A stretch of 64,000 bases of DNA from Anaerolineae bacterium (GTDB lineage Bacteria > Chloroflexota > Anaerolineae > Promineifilales > Promineifilaceae), in contig JAHDWL010000002.1 in NCBI GenBank assembly GCA_023384355.1, positions 159,667 through 223,666 of the forward strand, read 5' to 3'. Each line of letters begins with the position of its first letter. Position 1 is the stretch's first letter. The notes under the pieces were generated by a model. The model was not told the origin of the DNA. It did not search any database and worked only from the letters and a program-made list of their open reading frames with translations. A program made the translations under genes and the position numbers. This document shows, piece after piece, positions 17,335 to 49,451 of this stretch.

Positions 17335-18081
17335 GTGAACGTCTCGGGACATCCGGTCAGAGAGACCCAAAGGTGGTTGCGTCAACTGGTGGCTTTCTGT
17401 GTGGATGTGGTTTTCCCACCCGCATGCGCCAGTTGCGGGCGGGTGGGTTGGCTGATTTGTCCGGCTTGCGAGGCGGAGATGGTCAAGGTGCCGGCACGGG
17501 TGTGCTCACGTTGTGGCCGTTTCCATGAAGTCATATTGACATCGGGGCCCGACCCGATTTGCAATGAATGTCACCAGAAGCCCCCGACGCTTACCCGGAT
17601 GCGCGCCCCCTTGTGCTACATGGAGCCGACCAGCCGAATTATCCATCGCTTTAAATATGAAGGATTGTTTGCATTGGCGGACCCATTGGCCCGGTTTCTA
17701 ATTGCCGGATGGCCGGAGTGGACGCAGCCGCCCGATCTCGTGCTACCTGTCCCCCTCCATCCGCGGCGAATGCGGCAGCGCGGCTATAATCAGTCTGAAC
17801 TGTTGGCCCGGCCATTGAGCATGGCGAAGCGTATCGCAATGGAACCGACATTACTCCAACGGACGCGCCACACAATGCCCCAGGTTGGCCTTGGCCCGGA
17901 GGATCGCCTGCAAAACGTACGCGGTGCCTTCACAGCTGATGCTGCCGGGGTCCGCGGCTGCCACGTGATGCTTGTGGACGATGTGCTGACGACGGGGGCT
18001 ACCATGTCGGCCGCAGCCGAAGCGCTTCTCGAAGCAGGGGCAACCAGCGTCGCAGCCTATTGTTTGGCACGGGTTAGCTAG
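17335..18081 (+). CDS. comF: ComF-family competence protein (double zinc ribbon + PRTase-like)
   Basis: FPPACASCG...CPAC, CSRCG...CNEC, VPLHPRRMRQRGYNQS, VDDVLTTGAT. Confidence 0.9.
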   Translation: MNVSGHPVRETQRWLRQLVAFCVDVVFPPACASCGRVGWLICPACEAEMVKVPARVCSRCGRFHEVILTSGPDPICNECHQKPPTLTRMRAPLCYMEPTSRIIHRFKYEGLFALADPLARFLIAGWPEWTQPPDLVLPVPLHPRRMRQRGYNQSELLARPLSMAKRIAMEPTLLQRTRHTMPQVGLGPEDRLQNVRGAFTADAAGVRGCHVMLVDDVLTTGATMSAAAEALLEAGATSVAAYCLARVS

Positions 18082-19912: not shown

Positions 19913-21097
19913 ATGCAAGACGGACGCACCGCGTGGCTGCAGCAAGAAATCGATAATCTGAAATCGGCCGGTCTCTATAATCACATTCGCACCCTGGATT
20001 CGCCGATGGATGCCTGGGTGACCATCGACGGCCGTCGCCTGCTCAATTTTTGCGCCAACAACTATCTTGGCCTGGCCAATCATCCGCGTATAACCCAGGC
20101 GGCCCGGGACGGCATCGAAAATTATGGAGTTGGGCCGGGCGCTGTGCGCTCTATTGCCGGCACGACGTCGTTGCATGTCCAGCTGGAGCAGCGTCTGGCC
20201 GAATTTAAGAATGCCGAGGCGTGCATCACTTTTCAGAGCGGCTTCACGGCTAACCTGGCCACTATCCCTGCGCTGGTCGGTCCCGGCGATCTCATTTTCT
20301 CCGACGAATTGAACCACGCCAGTATCATCGACGGTTGCCGCTTGAGCCGGGCCGAAGTCGTTCGCTATGCCCACAACGATGTCGCCGATTTGCGGCGCGT
20401 TATCGCGGAACGAACTGATTACAAGCGGCGGCTGATCATCACCGATGGGGTCTTCAGCATGGACGGCGATATCGCCCCGCTGGACAAGATCGCCGGGGTG
20501 GCTGAGGAACACGGCATCATGCTCATGGTTGACGACGCCCACGGCGAGGGTGTGCTCGGTCGCGGCGGCCGCGGCATCGTGGATCATTTCGGCTTGCACG
20601 GTCGGGTCGACGTCGAGGTCGGGACGCTGAGCAAGGCGTTCGGTGTGGTCGGCGGCCTGGTGGCCGGCAAGGCCATCATCATTGAATGGTTGCGGCAGCG
20701 CGGCCGGCCTTTCCTGTTCAGCAGCGCCATGACCGCGCCGGATACGGCGGCTTGCATCGAGGCAGTGGCTATTCTGGGCGAGTCCACGGAATTGATCGAC
20801 CGCCTGTGGGCCAATGCTGAGCTGTTCCGCAAGGAGATGCAGGCGATGGGTTTCAACACCGGCTTTAGCCAAACGCCCATCGTGCCGGTGATGCTCGGCG
20901 AGGCGTCGCTGGCTCAGCAGTTCAGCCGTCGCCTGTTCGAGGAGGGCGTCTTTGCGATGGCGATCGGTTTCCCGACGGTGGCCAGGGGCAAGGCCCGCAT
21001 CCGCGTGATGAATTCGGCCGCCCACAACCTGGCCGACATCGAGATCGCCCTGGAGACGTTCAGTCGGGTAGGCCGGGAACTGGGTGTTATATCGTAA
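19913..21097 (+). CDS. kbl: Glycine C-acetyltransferase (AONS/KBL family, PLP-dependent)
   Basis: [56 protein letters not shown]. Confidence 0.88.
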
Positions 21098-22496
21098 ACC
21101 GTTGCCCCAATTCGGGCACGATGACCTGGGGAAACCCGAGCTGGGAGCGCATCCGCTCGGCCAGGGCAAAGGCCGCCTCCGACTCGCCGTGCACGAGGAA
21201 TGTTTGGCGCGGTGGCTGGCTCAGATGTCCCGCCCACGCCAATAATTCGGAGCGGTCGGCGTGGCCGCTCATGCCGGTCAGGCTTTCCACGCGGGCGCGA
21301 ACATCGTAATCCTCACCGAAGATTTTAATGCGCTTGTGGCCGTCGAGAATGCGGCGGCCGAGCGTGTCCGGTGCCTGAAAGCCGGTGATGAGCACTGTGT
21401 TGCGGCTGTCTTCCACGTTGTTCTTCAGATGGTGGAGGATGCGGCCTGCCTCGGCCATTCCGCTGGCGCTGATGATGACGGACGGGCCTTTCAGGAAGTT
21501 AAGCGCCTTGGACTCCTGGGCAGAGCGCGTGTAGTGCATGAGCCTGAAGCCGAAGGGATCGTGATCGGGATCGGTCATCATGATCTCGGCCGTTTCCTCA
21601 TCATACGCTTCGGGGTGGGCACGGAAGATGCTGGTCGCGTCGATGGCCAGGGGACTATCGACGTAGACTGCCAAATCGGGGGGTAAATCCCCGGCCTCAA
21701 CGAGGTTATTCAGCCGGTAGACGAGTTCCTGTGTCCGTCCAATGGCGAACGCCGGCACGATTACCCTGCCGCCTTGTTTGACCGTGTCGCGGATGATGGC
21801 CTCGAGCGTCTCGTCTGTGTCCTGGTCTTCGGGATGTTCGCGATTACCGTAGGTGCTCTCCATAATGAGGATGTCGGCGCGATCCGGGAACGCCGGGTCG
21901 TTGAGTATGGGGCGGTTGGCGCGGCCGATATCACCGCTGAAGATCAGTCGCAGAGGTTGTCCGCCTTCCTTATCCTCGATGTCGAGGGCGACGAAGGCCG
22001 ACCCCAGCACATGGCCCGCGTCGTGGAAAGTTAGAGTGATGCCGGGCGCGACCTGATAGGGACGCTCATAGCCGACACCCAGAAACAGTTTCAGGCTGGC
22101 CAGCGCGTCGGCCATGGTGTAGATCGGCTCCAATGGTGGCAGGTCCTGCCGGCGACGCTTTTTGTTCAGGTATTCCATGTCGAACTCCTGAATCTTTGCG
22201 CTGTCGCGCAGCATGATGTTGCACAGGTCGCGTGTGGCGAAGGTTGAGATGATATCCCCATTAAAACCGCTGCGTACCAGGTTGGGGATATTGCCGCTGT
22301 GGTCGATGTGGGCGTGGGACAGGATCAGCACGTCGATGGAGCGGGCGTCAAAGGGCAGATGACGATTACGGTCCTTGCTCTCCTGACGCGGCCCCTGATA
22401 GAGTCCGCAATCGAGCAGGATGCGATAGCCGTTAACATCGAGCAAGTGCTGTGATCCGGTGACCGTTCGCGCCGCGCCAAAAAATGTAATATCCAC
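21087..22496 (-). CDS. MBL-fold beta-CASP ribonuclease (RNA-metabolising metallo-hydrolase)
   Basis: [38 protein letters not shown]. Confidence 0.9.
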
Positions 22497-22546
22497 TGTT
22501 CAGTCCTCCACATACCTGCCCGAATTGACGGCCAGGCCCAAATTCA

Positions 22547-23719
22547 TCAAAGGGCGTTCAAAATTTCATCCCCGTAAGTTGCCAATCGCCAGGGGCCGAG
22601 CACATCGAGGGCTTCCAGCTCATTCATCGACCGCGGGTTGGCCTGGGCGATGGCCCATAAAGATTCACGCCCGGCGATGACATCGGACTCCACGCCACGG
22701 GCCTGGGCGCGCGTCTTGCGCCAGCGATGCAGCCGGTCATAGCGGTTCAGGACGCTGTCGGGCGGCCGCGGCGACCGTTTGGGCGGTTGCGGTCGCTCGG
22801 CCTCGCGCGCGCCGGCGATCAGGTCAAGTATCGCCTCGCCGTAGCGTTGCTGCTGTCCGTCGGACATGCCGTGGATGTCGTCGAGTTCGGCCATGCGTGA
22901 CGGCATTCCGGCGGCCAATTCCAGTAGCGTCCGATCGCTGACTACCTTGAAATGGGGGATATTGCGCCGTTTGGCCTCGCGGTCGCGGTATAGATACAGC
23001 GCTTGCAAGGCGGTCTGCTGATCGGGGGATAAATCAAACGCACCGTTGATGTTCCAGAAACCGTCGGGGTCGAAGCCGTTGTTGGGCAACCTGACGCGCG
23101 ATTGCTCCCGGAAGATTTCCGCGGCCTCGGCCGCGTGCCCGCCGGCCTCGATCTCAGCCATCAGGATATCGCGCAGCGACAGCAGGTAGTGGGTGTCTTT
23201 CTGGGCGTAGGACAGCTCAGCCGGCGAGAGGGGGCGCTTGCACCAGTTGGCCTTTTGGAAGCGCTTGCTGGTCGTGACGTTGAAGAATTTCTCCAGCAGG
23301 CTGGCCAATCCCATCTGGGCATAGCCCAGGATGCGCACCGCCCACATGGTGTCGAACAGATTGTTCAATTGCCAGCCGTAATCGCGTCGCATCAGGATTA
23401 GGTCATATTCAGCCGCGTGGAAGACCTTCTCGACCGCCGGGTCGGCGATGATCTGGCCCAGGCCGGCCAGATCGATGCGTCGGGTCGGGTCGATGATGTA
23501 GTCAAAATTGGCGGTTGAAACCTGGATCAGGCAGGCACGTTCCTGATAGGCGAACATGCTGTTAGCCTCCAGGTCGATGGCCAGGCGGGGGGCAACCCGC
23601 AGTTCGCGCAGGCAATCCTGCCAGGCGGATTGATTGGCGACGTAGTGGAACGGGCCGAGCGCCGCCGGTTTGCCGGTTTGATCGGTGTGAAGCGGCCGGT
23701 TATCGTTGCCCGACGTCAT
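22547..23719 (-). CDS. rnd: Ribonuclease D (DEDDy 3'-5' exonuclease + HRDC domains)
   Basis: AIDLEANS, VFHAAEYD, LFDTMWA, KANWCKRPL, YAQKDTHYL, two HRDC-like repeats; start moved to ATG 23719. Confidence 0.88.
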   Translation of the reverse strand: MTSGNDNRPLHTDQTGKPAALGPFHYVANQSAWQDCLRELRVAPRLAIDLEANSMFAYQERACLIQVSTANFDYIIDPTRRIDLAGLGQIIADPAVEKVFHAAEYDLILMRRDYGWQLNNLFDTMWAVRILGYAQMGLASLLEKFFNVTTSKRFQKANWCKRPLSPAELSYAQKDTHYLLSLRDILMAEIEAGGHAAEAAEIFREQSRVRLPNNGFDPDGFWNINGAFDLSPDQQTALQALYLYRDREAKRRNIPHFKVVSDRTLLELAAGMPSRMAELDDIHGMSDGQQQRYGEAILDLIAGAREAERPQPPKRSPRPPDSVLNRYDRLHRWRKTRAQARGVESDVIAGRESLWAIAQANPRSMNELEALDVLGPWRLATYGDEILNAL

Positions 23720-24662
23720 ATTGCTGATACCACTCCCAAAATTGCCGCACGCCTTCGTCGACCGAGACGGAAGGATTAAAGTCGAGCAATCGCCGGGCCT
23801 TGCTGATATCGGCCTCGTTGCGGGCAAAGTCGGCGGCCAGCCGCGGGGTCGGGACAACGTTGGCCTTGCGGCCGCTCAGTTGTTCCATGATCTCCACAAA
23901 GTGTCGCAGGAGAACCGGCTCGCCGCGGCCGAGGTTGATGATCTCGTAACCCAACGGGCGGTCGATGGCCGCTATGACGCCGTTGACGGTGTCATCAACG
24001 AAAGTCCAGTCGCGGTACATATGACCGTTGTCGTAGAGGGGGATCTCCTTGCCCTTCATGATGCTGTCGGCCAGCAGGTAAGCCATCATGTCCGGGCGGC
24101 CGTTGGGACCATAGACGGTGAAGAAGCGCAGCACAGTGAAGTTCAGACTGAACAGGTGGTGATAGCTGAAGCCTAGAATCTCGGCCGCGCGTTTGGCGGC
24201 GGCATAGGGTTGTAGCGGCCGGTCGCAGGGATCCGTCTCGATGAAGGGGATTTGCGTCGTATTGCCATAGACGGAGGACGTGGAGGCGAAGACGAAATTG
24301 CGGACACCGCCGGCCGCCCGCGCCGCGTCGAGCAGGTTTTGCGTGCCGTTCAGATTGACGTTGACGTACAAATCCGGATGGGTGACGGCATTGCGAACGC
24401 CGGCCATGGCCGCCAGGTGGGCGACGGCGTCTATTTTCTCCGTCGCGAATAGCTCGAACATCCGTTCCCGGTCGCGGATATCCGCCTCCACCATGCGGAA
24501 GTTCGGATAGGCGGCGAGTCGCCGCTCGTTGGCTCGCTTGCGCGCGGGAGCGTAATAATCGTTGAAATTATCGAGGCCGATGACCGTGTCACCGCGCCGG
24601 CATAGCTGTTCGGCAAGATGGCTGCCTATGAAACCGGCTGCGCCGGTGACTAAAAGGCTCAT
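23700..24662 (-). CDS. NAD-dependent epimerase/dehydratase (UDP-glucuronate 4-epimerase-like)
   Basis: TGAAGFIG, AHLAAMAGVR, FASTSSVYG, YAAAK, RFFTVYGP, RDWTFVDD. Confidence 0.9.
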   Translation of the reverse strand: MSLLVTGAAGFIGSHLAEQLCRRGDTVIGLDNFNDYYAPARKRANERRLAAYPNFRMVEADIRDRERMFELFATEKIDAVAHLAAMAGVRNAVTHPDLYVNVNLNGTQNLLDAARAAGGVRNFVFASTSSVYGNTTQIPFIETDPCDRPLQPYAAAKRAAEILGFSYHHLFSLNFTVLRFFTVYGPNGRPDMMAYLLADSIMKGKEIPLYDNGHMYRDWTFVDDTVNGVIAAIDRPLGYEIINLGRGEPVLLRHFVEIMEQLSGRKANVVPTPRLAADFARNEADISKARRLLDFNPSVSVDEGVRQFWEWYQQYDVGQR

Positions 24663-26440
24663 GTGGCAACGCTCTCTTCCTGTTGGGCAGGGCGGATATC
24701 CTCGACGACAAGCTGGAGGGTTGAGTTGCCCTGCCATTGGTTGACGCTGACGCGGTAGATCATGTCGATGTAGCGGGGCATCGAGCCGGCCCACTCGCCC
24801 TGGCGAAAGGCGATGGCCGGGAAGGCTTGCGCCGGCCGTCCGATTGCGCCGGCATAACGGCCCCCGCCGTTGCGACGAGGATCGATGACCTGGAGCTGAA
24901 GGTGGCTGCCGTCGGAGCCGACAGGTCGGTGGCTGACAACCTCCACGCCGCGGCTAAGCAAATAAGGCTGGGGGTTCATCGTTCCGGTCGGCTCCAGTTG
25001 CTCCAGCGTAGCCTGCAAGGCCCAGTCGATATCGCTCAGGGGCATGGTGGCGTCGACGGAGATGCTCGGTCGCAGGTCCTGACCGGCCAGACGCTCGGCG
25101 GCGATCACGGTCAGGCGCTCGATGAACTCCGGCACGTGTTCGTTGCGGATGGTGAAGCCGGCCGCCTGGGCGTGACCACCATGGCGCACGAGCAGATCAG
25201 CCACCTCGTCGAGCGCCCTGGTGATATGAAATTCGGGGATGGAGCGGCAGGAACCCCGGCTCTCCTCTTCTCCACGCTCCATGACGATGGCCGGCCGGTA
25301 TGATTTCTCGGCAAGCCGGCTGGCGACCAGACCGACGATGCCCGATTTAAATTCGGGACTGCCGGCGATGATGATGGGCGCGTCCGGATCGACCATCTGC
25401 TCGGCCAGCGCGCTGAGCTGACGGGTCAGGGACTGGCGTTTGCGGTTTAATTCGTCCAGCAACCGCGCCTGATCCTGGGCGCTTCCGGAGTCGGGAGCGA
25501 TGAGCAGGCGGGCAGCATCGTAGGCGTGGGCCAGCCGGCCGGCGGCGTTGATGCGCGGCCCCAGGGCGAAGCCGATACTTTCGGCCGTCATGTGTCCCGG
25601 CTGCAAGCCGCTGACGTTCATCAGGGCGGCAATCCCCGGCCGGCGCACTTCGTTGAGGACGGCCAACCCCTCAGCCACCAGTTTGCGGTTCTCGCCTACA
25701 AGCGGGGCCAGGTCGGCCACCGTGCCGATGGCGACCAGGTCCAGATAGTCCGATTCATCCGCCGTTACCCTGTCGGGGAACGCCTGCCGCAGCGCCTGCG
25801 CCAGCTTGAAGGCGATGCCGACCCCGGCCAGCATGCGTTCCGGGTATTGTGAGTCGGGGCGCTTGGGGTTGATGATCGCCGTGGCCGGTGGCAATTCGTA
25901 ACCGAGGCTATGATGGTCAGTGATAATCATGTCCAGGCCCATGGCGCGGGCATGGGCGGCCTCGACCGGGGAGCGGATGCCGCAATCGACACTGATGACG
26001 AGACTCGCCCCCTTTTGCCGCAGGGACGTTAGCGCCTCCATGTTCAGGCCGTATCCCTCATCAACCCGGTCGGGAATATAGGGAACGATGAGACGGCGAT
26101 CGTCGACCATATCCCGCAACGCTTCCGTCAGCAGTACCGTGGAAGTGACCCCATCGGCGTCAAAGTCGCCATAGACGACGATGGTCTCGTTGTCGCGCAG
26201 CGCGCGGCCGATGCGTTCGACAGCCCGGTCCATGTCGGCCAGAAGATAGGGATCGCGCGAGGGCAGGTAATGATTGGCCAGAAAGGCCTGTATCTGGCCC
26301 GGCTGCGTGAGGCCGCGGTTGTGCAGAATCCGCCGCAATACGGGATGTACCGCGTCATCGGCCGTCCATAAGGACGAATCGTCGGGGATTTCGGGCGCGA
26401 CGAGCCAATGGTACTCGCGCAAGGATGACGGCCGTTTCAT
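24659..26440 (-). CDS. recJ: Single-stranded-DNA-specific exonuclease RecJ
   Basis: YGDFDADG, GYGLN, SVDCG, ITDHH (DHH), GTVADL, GPRINAAGRL, GGHAQAAG. Confidence 0.95.
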   Translation of the reverse strand: MKRPSSLREYHWLVAPEIPDDSSLWTADDAVHPVLRRILHNRGLTQPGQIQAFLANHYLPSRDPYLLADMDRAVERIGRALRDNETIVVYGDFDADGVTSTVLLTEALRDMVDDRRLIVPYIPDRVDEGYGLNMEALTSLRQKGASLVISVDCGIRSPVEAAHARAMGLDMIITDHHSLGYELPPATAIINPKRPDSQYPERMLAGVGIAFKLAQALRQAFPDRVTADESDYLDLVAIGTVADLAPLVGENRKLVAEGLAVLNEVRRPGIAALMNVSGLQPGHMTAESIGFALGPRINAAGRLAHAYDAARLLIAPDSGSAQDQARLLDELNRKRQSLTRQLSALAEQMVDPDAPIIIAGSPEFKSGIVGLVASRLAEKSYRPAIVMERGEEESRGSCRSIPEFHITRALDEVADLLVRHGGHAQAAGFTIRNEHVPEFIERLTVIAAERLAGQDLRPSISVDATMPLSDIDWALQATLEQLEPTGTMNPQPYLLSRGVEVVSHRPVGSDGSHLQLQVIDPRRNGGGRYAGAIGRPAQAFPAIAFRQGEWAGSMPRYIDMIYRVSVNQWQGNSTLQLVVEDIRPAQQEESVAT

Positions 26441-26573
26441 AGCAGGGGGAATAGTAGCACGGAGGGCGCCGATCCTCAAGCAGGCGGGTCGTCGTGAGAT
26501 ATGACATCTATATTTGGATTATCAGCGCGCATGTGATTATACTCTCTCCAAGGAACAGGCGATCCAGGCATAT

Positions 26574-27500
26574 ATGAGCGATTTGACTCCCCCACCACAA
26601 CAAGCCCCGATTGGGCGCGTACAGCAGGCGACGGCCGAGTTCCTGCCGACGGTCAAATTGTTGAGTCGCCTGACGCTGCGCTCCTTCCAGGATGCACTGG
26701 CCCCGGAATCCCAACTTGTCGCTTCCTCCATCGGTTATTACACGCTGTTCTCCGTCTTCCCGCTGGCGTTGCTCGTAGTCGCCATCGCCAGTAACTGGCT
26801 GGACCCGTTGCTGGCCGAGACGCGGATCGTCGCTGAGCTGGAGTTCATCGTGCCCGGCCTCGAATCGTTGCTGGGCGAGAATTTACAAAACCTGGTTCGA
26901 GCACGAGGCCCAATCACCGGCGTGGCGGCGCTCATGCTGCTCTGGTCAGCGTCGAGCGTCTTCAACGTCATCACCCGGACGATGGATCGCATCTGGGGGG
27001 CCGATATCAACCATCGCCGGTCGGTCTGGCGTCACCGGACGCTGGCCGTCGTGATGGTCCTCATCGTCACGACCTTGTTGCTCATCGCCTCCACCATAGA
27101 GGGGACGGTATTGACGATCATCAACAGCCTGCTCCCCGACGCGCTGGCCGGCTTCGGGCCGTACACCACGAGATTCTGGGCTGTTTTCATCAATTTCCTC
27201 CTCTTTTCCCTGCTTTATTATTTTATTCCTCACGTGAAAGTCGGCTGGCGGGAGGTTCTGCCTGGGGCCGTCCTGGCCGGCATCCTCTGGCAGATTGCGA
27301 AGCAATTGTTTCTGTATTTTGTGGCCAATTACCTCTCGCGCTCGAACCTCATTTATGGCTCGGTAGGGACGATCATCGCCTTTCTGACGTGGACTTACTT
27401 CAGCAGCCTGGTGCTCCTCATCGGCGCGTATCTGAATCGCCATGTCGCGGCATCCCGTCAGGCGACAGCAGTCGCAGTCTTCGAATCGCCCGCCGGCTAA
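26574..27500 (+). CDS. YihY/virulence factor BrkB family membrane protein
   Basis: SIGYYTLFSVFP, LLWSAS, LYYFIP, YGSVGTIIAFLTWTYFS..VLLIGA. Confidence 0.88.
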   Translation: MSDLTPPPQQAPIGRVQQATAEFLPTVKLLSRLTLRSFQDALAPESQLVASSIGYYTLFSVFPLALLVVAIASNWLDPLLAETRIVAELEFIVPGLESLLGENLQNLVRARGPITGVAALMLLWSASSVFNVITRTMDRIWGADINHRRSVWRHRTLAVVMVLIVTTLLLIASTIEGTVLTIINSLLPDALAGFGPYTTRFWAVFINFLLFSLLYYFIPHVKVGWREVLPGAVLAGILWQIAKQLFLYFVANYLSRSNLIYGSVGTIIAFLTWTYFSSLVLLIGAYLNRHVAASRQATAVAVFESPAG

Positions 27501-27506
27501 ACGTCC

Positions 27507-27534
27507 TTGACGCGGCATGAGAAATAAATATAAT
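27507..27534 (+). promoter_or_regulatory. Sigma70-type promoter giving a leaderless transcript for the Cas4-like N-half gene
   Basis: TTGACG (27507-12)-16 nt-TATAAT (27529-34); ATG at 27542. Confidence 0.65.
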
Positions 27535-27541
27535 AGAACAT

Positions 27542-27781
27542 ATGAGCGATCGTTGGATTAAGGCCAGTGAGATTAGCGAATATGTCTATTGCCGCCGGTC
27601 GTGGTGGTTGCGGCGCATGCGCGCTGTCCCTTCCTCAAACGTGGCGAAGATGCAGGCGGGAACGAAATACCACGAACGACACGGCCGCCTGCTGGAGACT
27701 TCGGCATGGCTGCGCCGGTTGGCTTATGCCGCCATTTTTTGCGCGATGGCCTTGCTTGTCTACCAGATATTGTCAGGTTAG
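27542..27781 (+). CDS. Cas4-like nuclease N-terminal half with C-terminal TM helix (79 aa)
   Basis: IKASEISEYVYC17RRSWWL (Cas4 N-terminal Cys motif), G40-TKY-H44, then LAYAAIFCAMALLVYQIL helix. Confidence 0.7.
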   Translation: MSDRWIKASEISEYVYCRRSWWLRRMRAVPSSNVAKMQAGTKYHERHGRLLETSAWLRRLAYAAIFCAMALLVYQILSG

Positions 27782-27864
27782 GCGCGCTGGATTGACCGAC
27801 CAGCGTCGAAGCGAAAGGATAACGCTGGACGCCGGCTGACCGGTTGCCTGGAGAAGTTAAAACC

Positions 27865-28398
27865 ATGATGATGAGTGGCTTGCCGTTGATACTGGTGCTG
27901 GGGTTGCTGTTTTTGGCTGCCCTGTTCTGGTTTCGCGGACGTAACCTGCGCGAGGAGAGCGGCTTGCCCGCCGGAAATGTCATCTACACTGACACCGGCA
28001 CCTGGCGAGCCAACAGCGCAGTGTTACACGCCGCTCACCTGCGTTTGGCCGGCAAGCCGGATTACCTGGTGGAACAGCGGGACGGGTCAATCATCCCGGT
28101 CGAGATCAAGTCCAGCCTCGCTCCGAACTCTCCCTGGGATGGTCAGGTGCTCCAGTTAGCCGCCTATTGCGCGCTGGTCGAGACGAACTACGGCGTGCGG
28201 CCGCCATACGGGATTCTCCAATACAAGGACCGCGCTTTCGCCGTCGATTTCACCGATGATCTGGAAGCTGACCTGCTCGATCTGCTGGACGAAATGCGCC
28301 AGACTAGCGCAGACCCTGACCCCGAACCCGATCACGGCGATCGGCGGCGCTGCCTGGCCTGCGGTGTCCGCGAGGCCTGCGGCCGCCGGCTGGCCTGA
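27865..28398 (+). CDS. Cas4/Dna2-like PD-(D/E)xK nuclease, C-terminal half, with N-terminal TM anchor (177 aa)
   Basis: RBS GGAGAAG; TM LPLILVLGLLFLAALFWF; GKPD66, E80-I-K82, QLAAY, C-terminal C-x2-C-x5-C. Confidence 0.85.
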   Translation: MMMSGLPLILVLGLLFLAALFWFRGRNLREESGLPAGNVIYTDTGTWRANSAVLHAAHLRLAGKPDYLVEQRDGSIIPVEIKSSLAPNSPWDGQVLQLAAYCALVETNYGVRPPYGILQYKDRAFAVDFTDDLEADLLDLLDEMRQTSADPDPEPDHGDRRRCLACGVREACGRRLA

Positions 28399-28525
28399 AC
28401 GCTCCCGGCCTGAGGGAGCGCGAAACCTCACCCGCCCGTTTCAAAATCCCCTTTTCCCGGTATAATTAAGCGATTAAATTGTCGACGGGCGGCCTGATCG
28501 GTCGCCTGCCATTGTGGAGGCTGCA

Positions 28526-29809
28526 TTGTCGAAACAGATTCAGCGGCTTACCGGTATGCACGACGTGCTGCCGGACGAGCGGCGCTATTGGGACACGATC
28601 TCCCGCGCGGCCGAGGAAGTGACCCGGCGCTTCGGCTTCCAGCGCATTGACACCCCGATTCTTGAGGCCACGGAGTTGTTTGCCCGCGGCGTGGGCGAAG
28701 GTTCGGATTTCTTCGTCCAGAAAGAGATGTACACCATCGTGGAGGCCGACGGCTCAAGCATCACCTTGCGCCCGGAGTTCACAGCCGGGTTCGTGCGCGC
28801 TTATATTTCCAACGGGCTGCACAACTGGTCACAGCCGGTCAAGCTTTATACCATCGGCCCCAGCTTCCGGCGCGAACGACCACAGGCAGGCCGGTTACGG
28901 CAACATAGCCAGTTCAATTGCGAGATCATGGGCGAGGAAGACCCTGCGGCCGACGTCGAAGTCATGATGGTGGCCATGAGCCTCTACCGCGAACTGGGTT
29001 TCAAAGGGTTGGTCTTCCAACTGAACAGCACCGGCTGCCCGGTTTGCAAACCCGGCTACATCAGGGAACTCGTCGCCTTTCTGGACAATCATTATGACAG
29101 GCTGGCCGACATCGATAAGGAACGGCTGACCAAGAACCCGTTGCGCGTGCTCGACAGCAAGGCCCCGGGTATGGAAGCGCTTTTGGCCGGCGCGCCGCAC
29201 ATTGCCGACTACCTGTGCGACGATTGCCGCGAGCATTTTGCCGACGTCCGGTCGCTGCTCGATGTGCTCGGGCAGTCGTATACGATCAATTTCCGGCTGG
29301 TGCGCGGCATTGATTACTACACCAAGACCGTCTTCGAGGTGTGGCAAGAGGGGATTGGCGCCCAGGCGGCGCTCTGTGGCGGCGGCCGTTACGATGGACT
29401 GTCGGAGGACATCGGCGGCCCGCCCACGCCCGGTGTCGGTTTCGGCTCCGGCATCGAGCGCGTGATGCTGGGAATGAAGGAGCAGGGTATCGAGCCGGCG
29501 GCAGCCACCCCGTTGCCGATTCTGGTGGCGCATTTTGGCGGGGCGACCAAGACGGCCGCCGTGCGACTGGTCTACCGACTGCGTGACGCAGGGATCGGCG
29601 CGAGACTAGCTTTCGCCCGCGGCAGTCGCAGTCTGAAGAGCCAGATGCGCGAGGCGGATCATCATGGCGCGCGCTACGTCCTGATCCTCGGCGAGGACGA
29701 GATAACCCGTGGCGTCGTCGCCGTCAAGCCGCTGGTCGAGGGTGAGCAACAATCCCAGGTCGCACTGGATGAGATTGTCGGGTGGCTGGCGGAGCGAATT
29801 ACCTCGTGA
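28526..29809 (+). CDS. hisS: Histidine--tRNA ligase
   Basis: GMHD, QKEMY, LRPEFTA, FRRERPQAGRLRQHSQ, LVRGIDYY, GGGRYDGL; probable TTG start after GGAGG (alternative GTG 28514). Confidence 0.96.
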   Translation: MSKQIQRLTGMHDVLPDERRYWDTISRAAEEVTRRFGFQRIDTPILEATELFARGVGEGSDFFVQKEMYTIVEADGSSITLRPEFTAGFVRAYISNGLHNWSQPVKLYTIGPSFRRERPQAGRLRQHSQFNCEIMGEEDPAADVEVMMVAMSLYRELGFKGLVFQLNSTGCPVCKPGYIRELVAFLDNHYDRLADIDKERLTKNPLRVLDSKAPGMEALLAGAPHIADYLCDDCREHFADVRSLLDVLGQSYTINFRLVRGIDYYTKTVFEVWQEGIGAQAALCGGGRYDGLSEDIGGPPTPGVGFGSGIERVMLGMKEQGIEPAAATPLPILVAHFGGATKTAAVRLVYRLRDAGIGARLAFARGSRSLKSQMREADHHGARYVLILGEDEITRGVVAVKPLVEGEQQSQVALDEIVGWLAERITS

Positions 29810-46321: not shown

Positions 46322-46333
46322 GAACGTATGTTC
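46322..46333. promoter_or_regulatory. LexA (SOS) box-like operator upstream of priA
   Basis: GAAC-GTAT-GTTC (GAAC-RNRY-GTTC) over the -35 position of a TACAAT (46351-56) promoter. Confidence 0.65.
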
Positions 46334-49379: not shown

Positions 49380-49451
49380 TGTCCCCGCACGGACTCGAAC
49401 CGTGATCTATCGCTTAGGAGGCGATTGCTCTATCCTTTGAGCTACGAGGAC
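49380..49451 (-). tRNA. tRNA-Arg(CCT)
   Basis: GTCCTCG/CGGGGAC acceptor stem, GCTC/GAGC D-arm, ATCGC-CTCCTAA-GCGAT anticodon arm, CACGG-TTCGAGT-CCGTG T-arm; CCA not encoded. Confidence 0.95.

Follow-up and report, generated by a model that had tools for sequence, protein, structure and literature searches.

Two adjacent genes of Chloroflexota encode complementary, membrane-anchored halves of a predicted CRISPR-independent Cas4-family nuclease

We describe a pair of small genes in a 64,000-nucleotide stretch of DNA from an Anaerolineae bacterium of the Promineifilaceae (Chloroflexota; assembly GCA_023384355.1, contig JAHDWL010000002.1, positions 159,667 to 223,666 of the forward strand). This whole stretch is called the window, and positions refer to it. 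The first open reading frame, ORF1 (27542-27781, + strand), encodes a protein of 79 amino acids (aa), predicted to be a tail-anchored subunit carrying the N-terminal helices of a Cas4 nuclease. The second, ORF2 (27865-28398, + strand; 177 aa counted from an ATG), encodes a predicted N-terminally anchored subunit with the PD-(D/E)xK core and a C-terminal cysteine triad. The two genes are in different frames and 83 nucleotides (nt) apart, and ORF2 is preceded by a ribosome-binding site of its own (GGAGA, 27850-27854, + strand, 10 nt 5' of the ATG). The spacer (27782-27864) also contains a 7-bp inverted repeat (CCAGCGT...ACGCTGG). The pair is flanked by yihY/BrkB (26514-27500) upstream and hisS (28514-29809) downstream, with recJ further upstream. 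A preliminary description, made from the DNA letters, had placed it in a yihY-X-Y-hisS locus near recJ and had read it as a split, CRISPR-independent Cas4-like nuclease; its neighbours are as it stated, and its coordinates and the residues it named (C17, G40-x3-H44, D66, E80-x-K82, QLAAY and C163/C166/C172) are all present.

Profile comparisons assign the two proteins to complementary parts of the Cas4 family, COG1468. On TIGR00372 (NCBIfam cas4, 180 positions), ORF1 aligns with positions 2-49 (E-value 6e-8) and ORF2 with positions 52-178 (E-value 9e-15), and the Pfam and PADLOC profiles of Cas4 are covered in the same complementary manner. Each protein stays below the TIGR00372 cut-off of 65 (ORF2, 55.0; ORF1, 32.8), whereas the simple sum of 87.8 exceeds it. 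With the Pfam model of Cas4 (PF01930), ORF2 scores 36.9 bits, above the cut-off of 22.7, and ORF1 20.6 bits, slightly below. The similarity to profiles of Cas4 proteins in the PDB is remote (E-value 1e-5). In the profile alignment with the type I-C Cas4 8D3L, C17 of ORF1 (codon at 27590-27592, + strand) corresponds to the first cysteine and G40-x3-H44 (27659-27673, + strand) to the GQHLH motif, while alignment with 7MI4 and 8D3L identifies ORF2 as the rest of Cas4, including the core and the CxxCx5C motif. These complementary matches and the alignments to solved structures bear out the proposal that ORF1 and ORF2 are complementary halves of one Cas4 fold.

The residues expected to matter for catalysis and for cluster binding are conserved in both halves. 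Among ORF1 homologues, C17, the predicted first ligand of a [4Fe-4S] cluster, is invariant, as are G40, H44 (a predicted ligand of the catalytic metal) and H47. On the ORF2 side, nuclease motifs II and III, that is D66 within GKPDY and E80-x-K82 (28060-28110, + strand), align with the core of the Cas4 structures 7MI4 and 8D3L, and are followed by Q97-L-A-A-Y101, a QxxxY motif, and directly thereafter by a further cysteine, C102, which is invariant in the homologue alignments (28153-28170, + strand). D66, E80-x-K82 and Q97-x3-Y101 show no variation in 48 ORF2 homologues. C163-x2-C166-x5-C172 (28351-28380, + strand), whose cysteines are the predicted C-terminal cluster ligands, is likewise invariant and aligns with the Cas4 CxxCx5C motif. 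Moreover, between the transmembrane helix and the first beta-strand ORF2 carries an invariant linker that is specific to this family, G33-L-P-x-G37-x3-Y41-x-D43-x3-W47 (27961-28005, + strand). Hence all four cluster cysteines of Cas4 (1 + C-x2-C-x5-C) are retained without exception, yet on two polypeptides. The single continuous soluble chain of ~160-220 aa that is a feature of the Cas4 family is absent here, and a transmembrane helix flanks each side of the break. PMC13621843, citing Lemak 2013, states that in SSO0001 the equivalent of H44, His62, binds the catalytic metal along with Asp99 and Glu113. By this equivalence, the predicted active site as well as the 1+3 set of cysteines is split over the two ORFs.

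The transmembrane segments are apparent from hydropathy and charge distribution. In ORF1, a C-terminal helix comprising approximately aa 59-78 (27716-27775, + strand) is preceded by RR and followed by just 1-2 residues; the best 19-residue Kyte-Doolittle score is 1.98 (aa 60-78). ORF1 homologues have a mean best 19-residue hydropathy of 2.36, with 3.0 lysine/arginine residues in the 12 residues before the helix as compared to 0.2 after it, and a tail of ~2 aa. By hydropathy, ORF1 thus has the features of a tail-anchored protein, namely a C-terminal transmembrane helix and a stretch rich in lysine/arginine before it. The ORF1 family comprises 533 clusters at 50% identity in a library of 1.8 billion proteins. 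Representatives of the best 149 of these clusters are 54-133 aa long; the motif S-E-x2-aro-x-aro-C (aro, aromatic residue) is found in 140, GxxxH in 148 and a C-terminal transmembrane helix, with a median tail of 3 aa, in 146 of them. The ORF2 helix, comprising approximately aa 4-23 (27874-27933, + strand), is followed by RGRNLRE, which predicts an N-out/C-in orientation, and reaches a Kyte-Doolittle score of 2.52 (aa 5-23). In ORF2 homologues it begins 3-5 residues from the N-terminus, with a mean hydropathy of 2.46 (minimum 1.26, 79 loci) and 0.14 lysine/arginine residues before versus 2.53 after the helix. By the positive-inside rule, the soluble parts of both proteins are predicted to be cytoplasmic, with extracytoplasmic ends of a few residues each. 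Hydropathy and charge bias therefore agree with the earlier view that each ORF has a transmembrane helix at the split point and a soluble part facing the cytoplasm.

The preliminary description had compared this arrangement to a transmembrane hairpin that was inserted into Cas4 and then cut at its outer turn. The predicted topology matches this geometry; an origin by hairpin insertion followed by cutting is plausible and unproven. The origin lacks proof because a fused relative was not found: the best 149 ORF1-family representatives and the 301 genomes of our phylum sample contain no ORF1-nuclease fusion, while more distant fusions are possible. A 256-aa protein (P0084) had looked like a natural fusion and was rejected, as the gene call extends too far at the 5' end and the N-terminus is therefore read out of frame.

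The distribution of the two genes was followed in this sample of 301 Chloroflexota genomes and in a close set of 41 related genomes. A strong ORF2 match that includes the transmembrane region occurs in 85 of the 301 genomes, and 80 of these 85 also possess ORF1; weak ORF1-like matches are seen in 8 of the 216 genomes without a strong ORF2 match (Fisher p for co-occurrence, 7e-57). In the close set, both halves are present in the same ~30 of 41 genomes and are nearly always adjacent. ORF2 relatives exist in at least 581 species-representative genomes, the best 80 of which are all Chloroflexota. Among 80 named loci, 62 have ORF1 directly upstream of ORF2 in the same orientation; of the rest, four are cut by contig ends and 14 have at least 2.4 kb of upstream DNA without ORF1. 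Co-occurrence and linkage confirm that ORF1 has homologues tied to ORF2 homologues across the phylum, as had been supposed. Genomes in which the two are unlinked (G034, G039) or have one gene between them (G038) still keep both, transmembrane helices included, and variants from other classes retain the plan, e.g. in G151, with an ORF1 homologue of ~150 aa.

The layout of these loci bears on whether the halves could arise as one chain, through read-through of a stop codon or a frameshift, that is as a Cas4 with an internal two-helix transmembrane hairpin. In 14 related loci, ORF1 and ORF2 indeed lie in one frame with a single stop codon between them, which would suit such a mechanism. However, the distance between the genes ranges from overlap to ~200 nt, often with several stops, and both share a frame in 22 of 62 loci, which is the level expected by chance; this variation rules out obligatory read-through or frameshifting. 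Since in addition the genes are unlinked in some genomes, and in the window differ in frame and are served by a separate ribosome-binding site of ORF2, synthesis as one chain is highly improbable.

Purifying selection acts on both genes: among close relatives, the ratio of nonsynonymous to synonymous substitution rates (dN/dS) is 0.18 for ORF1 (0.22 for its transmembrane part) and 0.15 for ORF2. Split genes frequently turn out to be artefacts, and in two assemblies of the same genus both halves appear frameshifted or fragmented (G017:C3:348651-349444 and G019:C19:228177-228881), which could be local pseudogenisation or poor assembly. One might accordingly suspect a decaying cas4 pseudogene, or one gene broken by an assembly or sequencing error. 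Against this stand the recurrence of the same split in hundreds of independent assemblies from several classes, complete genomes among them, the selection on both parts and the conserved transmembrane helices exactly at the junction, which make this explanation extremely improbable.

To see how the halves may fit together, structures were predicted for single chains. As a stand-in for the complex we used the read-through chain of the related locus L039, in which ORF1, a single stop codon and ORF2 follow each other in one frame; its input consisted of a paired alignment supplemented with unpaired ORF1 and ORF2 rows. The ORF2-alone model was that of the window protein. AlphaFold2 modelled the ORF1+ORF2 chain with a predicted local distance difference test score (pLDDT) of 93.4 and a predicted template modelling score (pTM) of 0.88, as compared to 82.3 and 0.63 for ORF2 alone, whose core was nevertheless confident. 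In Foldseek comparisons, the target-normalised template modelling score (TM-score) to 8D3L_I was 0.68 for the two-part chain versus 0.45 for ORF2 alone, and that to 7MI4_A was 0.29 versus 0.18. Addition of ORF1 raised the coverage of the Cas4 fold by ~50-60 residues, the gain on 7MI4_A amounting to ~60 residue-equivalents. In the model, the ORF1 domain is placed at the position of the Cas4 N-terminus; the GxxxH segment and the first transmembrane helix form one long continuous helix, and the second transmembrane helix continues into the core. The most evident differences concern the GLPxG linker (pLDDT ~45 in ORF2 alone versus ~94 in the two-part chain) and the C-terminal cysteine region (58-72 versus 87-95). 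The proposal that a cluster is ligated 1+3 across two chains gains indirect support, as C17 and the C-terminal triad are invariant and the cysteine region of ORF2 is confidently modelled only together with the ORF1 part.

These predictions also speak to the possibility that ORF2 is a self-sufficient anchored nuclease, either with C102 as fourth ligand or without a cluster, which ORF1 regulates, inhibits or localises. In its favour, ORF2 alone clears the Pfam thresholds for Cas4 and for PDDEXK_1, its core folds confidently, C102 is invariant, cluster-free Cas4 activity has been reported (PMC12501428), and ORF1 is non-adjacent in 14 of 80 loci. However, ORF1 matches precisely the Cas4 segment that ORF2 is missing, including the first cysteine and the GxxxH histidine. 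Without ORF1, the cysteine region and the linker are poorly predicted and fold coverage drops, and five in 85 genomes with ORF2 are all that lack ORF1. We therefore consider an independent ORF2 enzyme quite improbable.

The locus is independent of CRISPR, as had been proposed: no Cas1 was found in the whole 98%-complete genome and no CRISPR array-like repeat within the window. In the close set, Cas1 occurs in 12 of 41 genomes and does not track with the pair, which is present in ~32. No family members were found on viral contigs of IMG/VR. The neighbours are housekeeping genes (hisS, nadK, recN, rseP, ssb) that vary with the clade, and no partner is kept throughout; hisS and NAD kinase are each located downstream in 45 of 80 loci. 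With its housekeeping neighbours, its clade-consistent distribution and its absence from viral contigs, the family agrees with the definition of solo-Cas4 sensu Hudaiberdiev 2017. The preliminary description had further considered processing of DNA at an uptake site, and a ComFC-like gene is indeed found at 17335-18081 of the window. However, this role gained no support: ComEC (PF03772) is encoded in 270 of 301 genomes of the phylum, and being near-universal it is uninformative on DNA uptake. A PF12705 search of the same genome for AddB-like proteins returned a single 309-aa nuclease and failed to detect even ORF2, which makes it too insensitive to be informative on AddAB.

The upstream region of ORF1 provides a clue to regulation. 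A sigma-70-type promoter, TTGACG-16 nt-TATAAT (27507-27534, + strand), matches the consensus at 11 of 12 positions, and its -10 element ends 7 nt before the ORF1 ATG. As no Shine-Dalgarno sequence is present 5' of ORF1, the mRNA would be leaderless or nearly so, and ORF1 is probably translated in this manner. Upstream DNA is conserved in ~55 loci (proteins ~50-80% identical) as TTGAC-N17-TAAAAT/TAAATT, followed by AGAACAT-ATG-AGC. Within this region, the 12-mer GAACATATGAGC (27536-27547, + strand) starts 1 nt after the -10 element, overlaps both the start of transcription and the start codon of ORF1, and is a putative LexA (SOS) operator, as it resembles the Gram-positive-type LexA box GAAC-N4-GTTC. 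Two observations indicate that selection acts on the DNA sequence here. First, at least 55 of 56 related loci share AGAAC, while the spacer bases vary. Second, the codon of Ser2 is AGC in 55 of 56 loci, whereas the equally invariant Ser9 is encoded by AGC, AGT and TCT in 35, 20 and 1 loci, respectively.

Comparison with lexA of the same genome (G000) supports the assignment as an operator. The lexA promoter (C97:6061-6096) reads TTGACA-gc-GAACATGTGTTC-gtg-TTATACT-ca-GAACAAATGAGC, with one box between the -35 and -10 elements and a second just past the -10; both are kept in ~25 relatives including a sister family. The ORF1 site differs from the second lexA box, GAACAAATGAGC, by one spacer base and occupies the same position after the -10, and it is one base apart from the SOS box of ssb, GAACATATGTGC. 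In one lineage the second lexA box is a full palindrome, GAACAGATGTTC. The conservation of the lexA boxes and this palindrome indicate that GAAC-N4-GAGC is an operator variant. Of the 89 GAAC-N4-GAGC sites in the genome, only those of lexA and ORF1 closely follow a good promoter. Boxes of this kind are seen in the promoter contexts of recA, ssb, uvrB, priA, ftsK and an FtsK-like ATPase gene beside lexA, and the genes bearing these predicted boxes form a typical SOS set. A perfect palindrome of the SOS type, GAACGTATGTTC, lies within the window itself (46322-46333), 23 nt upstream of a gene for a 1004-aa PriA with Pfam PriA domains, suggesting that priA belongs to the LexA regulon. In ftsK (G000 C2:50490-53249; FtsK_4TM, alpha, SpoIIIE and gamma domains), a GAGC-variant box, GAACATTTGAGC, the same type as that of ORF1, is found 1 nt before the ATG, and the FtsK-like ATPase gene just downstream of lexA has its box at C97:6904.

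The position of the putative operator over the start site implies that expression of the pair should rise after DNA damage. Accordingly, of the roles that had been weighed beforehand, repair is the one to gain support from the LexA-type operator in the promoter. The promoter and operator are absent upstream of ORF1 in distant lineages and no SOS box was found upstream of stand-alone ORF2 genes, which makes the SOS wiring clade-specific. That is, these sites predict an SOS-induced pair with a role in DNA repair for the clade of the window only.

The explanation that we favour, and hold to be probable, is that ORF1 and ORF2 form an obligate two-subunit, membrane-anchored nuclease of the Cas4 family, which is inducible by DNA damage in the clade of the window and probably has DNA ends or trapped DNA as its substrates at the membrane. 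According to this model, tail-anchored ORF1 would provide, through its cytoplasmic N-terminal helices, the first cluster cysteine (C17) and the metal-binding H44, and ORF2, inserted with its N-terminus out and its C-terminus in, would contribute the beta-sheet core with D66, E80, K82 and Q97/Y101 as well as the other three cysteines. Within the membrane, the two transmembrane helices would lie side by side as in a hairpin whose outer turn has been severed, so that the halves meet on the cytoplasmic face. Active site and [4Fe-4S] cluster would each be built from both chains, leaving either chain alone inactive, and the assembled enzyme would be held right at the inner face of the membrane. For the Promineifilaceae/Ardenticatenales-type clade, the model adds a strong promoter of the pair's own and a LexA operator over the start site, so that expression would rise after DNA damage; the most likely role would be to process DNA ends, or DNA that has become trapped, at the membrane or septum as part of the SOS response.

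Several points weigh against this model. The structural stand-in is a covalently linked chain from a relative and not a pair of free chains. The fifth invariant cysteine of ORF2, C102, could in principle replace C17. Cysteine mutants of the solo-Cas4 of M. mazei lose the cluster and keep nuclease activity (PMC12501428), and as these mutants stay active the cluster may be structural only. With regard to regulation, the second half-site of GAACATATGAGC is GAGC, where the best SOS boxes have GTTC or GTGC, and the absence of the operator from distant lineages and from stand-alone ORF2 genes means that SOS control is no explanation for the family as a whole.

A bolder version of the same idea, which we regard as rather unlikely, is that the pair constitutes a hitherto unrecognised DNA-repair machine across the phylum. 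Its two-chain active site and [4Fe-4S] cluster would tie assembly to co-insertion into the membrane and to availability of the cluster (iron/redox), and it would be SOS-induced along with FtsK to deal with broken or septum-trapped DNA at the membrane in filamentous Chloroflexota.

As the main alternative in terms of biological function, the same two-chain membrane nuclease could instead serve mainly in innate defence, degrading foreign linear DNA of phages or plasmids where it comes through to the cytoplasmic side of the membrane. Relatives of Cas4 are associated with defence, the Druantia nuclease DruK is matched by ORF2 in PADLOC (E-value 1e-13), an enzyme on the inner membrane surface would be well sited for incoming DNA, and CRISPR is missing from many carrier genomes. 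However, the pair is a single-copy, vertically distributed element amid housekeeping genes and outside defence islands, its purifying selection is ordinary, viral contigs are devoid of members, and its promoter shares an SOS-type operator with lexA and ssb. A primary function in defence is therefore unlikely.

Returning to the two-subunit nuclease, its closest known relatives are the solo-Cas4 proteins. The 2017 survey of Cas4 (Hudaiberdiev et al., PMC5704561) noted a monophyletic solo-Cas4 group in 'many Chloroflexi', which very probably is the ORF2 family, and describes neither a split nor membrane anchors. Databases label ORF2 'CRISPR-associated exonuclease Cas4' or 'PD-(D/E)XK nuclease' and ORF1 'hypothetical protein'. 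The earlier remark that no system of this architecture was known agrees with our full-text literature search, which found no description of a split or membrane-anchored Cas4; the ORF2 family itself is not new, being annotated as Cas4 and very probably noted in 2017. Like the pair, solo-Cas4 proteins (PMC5704561; that of M. mazei, PMC12501428) possess one cysteine plus CxxCx5C, GxxxH, D, ExK and QxxxY, lack cas1 and cas2 neighbours, are vertically inherited and evolve under ordinary purifying selection. Unlike the pair, with its two genes and an anchor on each half, they are single soluble polypeptides, often oligomeric; an SOS-type promoter of solo-Cas4 is not mentioned in the literature searched.

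Cas4 proteins of CRISPR systems (8D3L of type I-C; 7MI4, the Cas4-Cas1 fusion of G. sulfurreducens; SSO0001, 4IC1) are the best matches in structure and sequence, and their catalytic and cluster residues align with those of the pair. Those enzymes, however, cooperate with Cas1-Cas2 to acquire spacers and are soluble proteins made of one chain or joined to Cas1, whereas the genome of the pair is devoid of Cas1. Next in the Foldseek ranking are iron-sulfur nuclease domains of the RecB type. AddB, AdnAB, Dna2 and Exo5 likewise arrange 1+3 cysteines as an 'iron staple' around a PD-(D/E)xK core and act in DNA end processing; however, their domains are embedded in large soluble helicase-nuclease machines, while the pair is membrane-tethered and has no helicase or fusion. 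As to anchoring, RNase Y and RNase E, which act on RNA, and the DNA translocases FtsK/SpoIIIE likewise hold a cytoplasmic domain at the inner membrane through N-terminal transmembrane segments, but their folds and activities are unrelated and none of them is a two-chain split enzyme. Taken together, the pair is a member of the Cas4 family by fold and motifs, and departs from it in not being a single polypeptide, soluble or CRISPR-associated.

For the biological role of solo-Cas4, the pair offers two handles, namely its predicted place on the cytoplasmic side of the membrane and, within one clade, a predicted LexA input. If the model applies, the pair would be one of few enzymes in nature in which two separately encoded and separately inserted chains share both the catalytic centre and the Fe-S cluster, and it could help in studies of split-protein assembly, of tail-anchored insertion in bacteria and of Fe-S ligation between chains. 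For annotation, the 'Cas4' and 'hypothetical protein' entries of hundreds of Chloroflexota genomes would be corrected to two halves of one CRISPR-independent enzyme. In addition, the putative operators provide a first outline of the SOS box and regulon of Promineifilum-type Chloroflexota.

With respect to gene neighbourhoods elsewhere, several Anaerolineae have ssb, a small domain-of-unknown-function (DUF) gene and a translin-like gene upstream of the pair. The translin-like gene (~215 aa) is located directly upstream at a median distance of 68 nt and on the same strand in the distant Anaerolineae L018, L020, L021 and L120-L123, and may be a functional partner in these lineages. In Chloroflexia-like genomes (L124-L129; families f27, f43, f64 and f73), a gene for an RseP-type M50 membrane protease (HELGH) precedes the pair with a gap of 0 nt, suggesting co-transcription.

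Within the window, three nuclease genes are arranged in a row upstream of the pair on the - strand (21087-26479), encoding an RNase J-like beta-CASP enzyme (21087-22496, - strand), an RNase D-like 3'-5' exonuclease with HRDC domains (22547-23857, - strand) and RecJ (24659-26479, - strand), while recN follows hisS and NAD kinase downstream. Two Rfam matches mark a tmRNA gene (2488-2901, + strand, 154.7 bits) and a tRNA gene (49380-49451, - strand). Elsewhere in the genome, a predicted membrane protein of 297 aa without Pfam match (G000 C143:106858-107748) is preceded by two SOS boxes in a lexA-like layout and represents a candidate SOS gene. Finally, recA was found solely in pieces that lie at contig ends, two of them N-terminal and two C-terminal (G000 C23:48894, C115:13586, C67:3 and C155:3), which reflect either two strain variants or an element inside recA that breaks the assembly.

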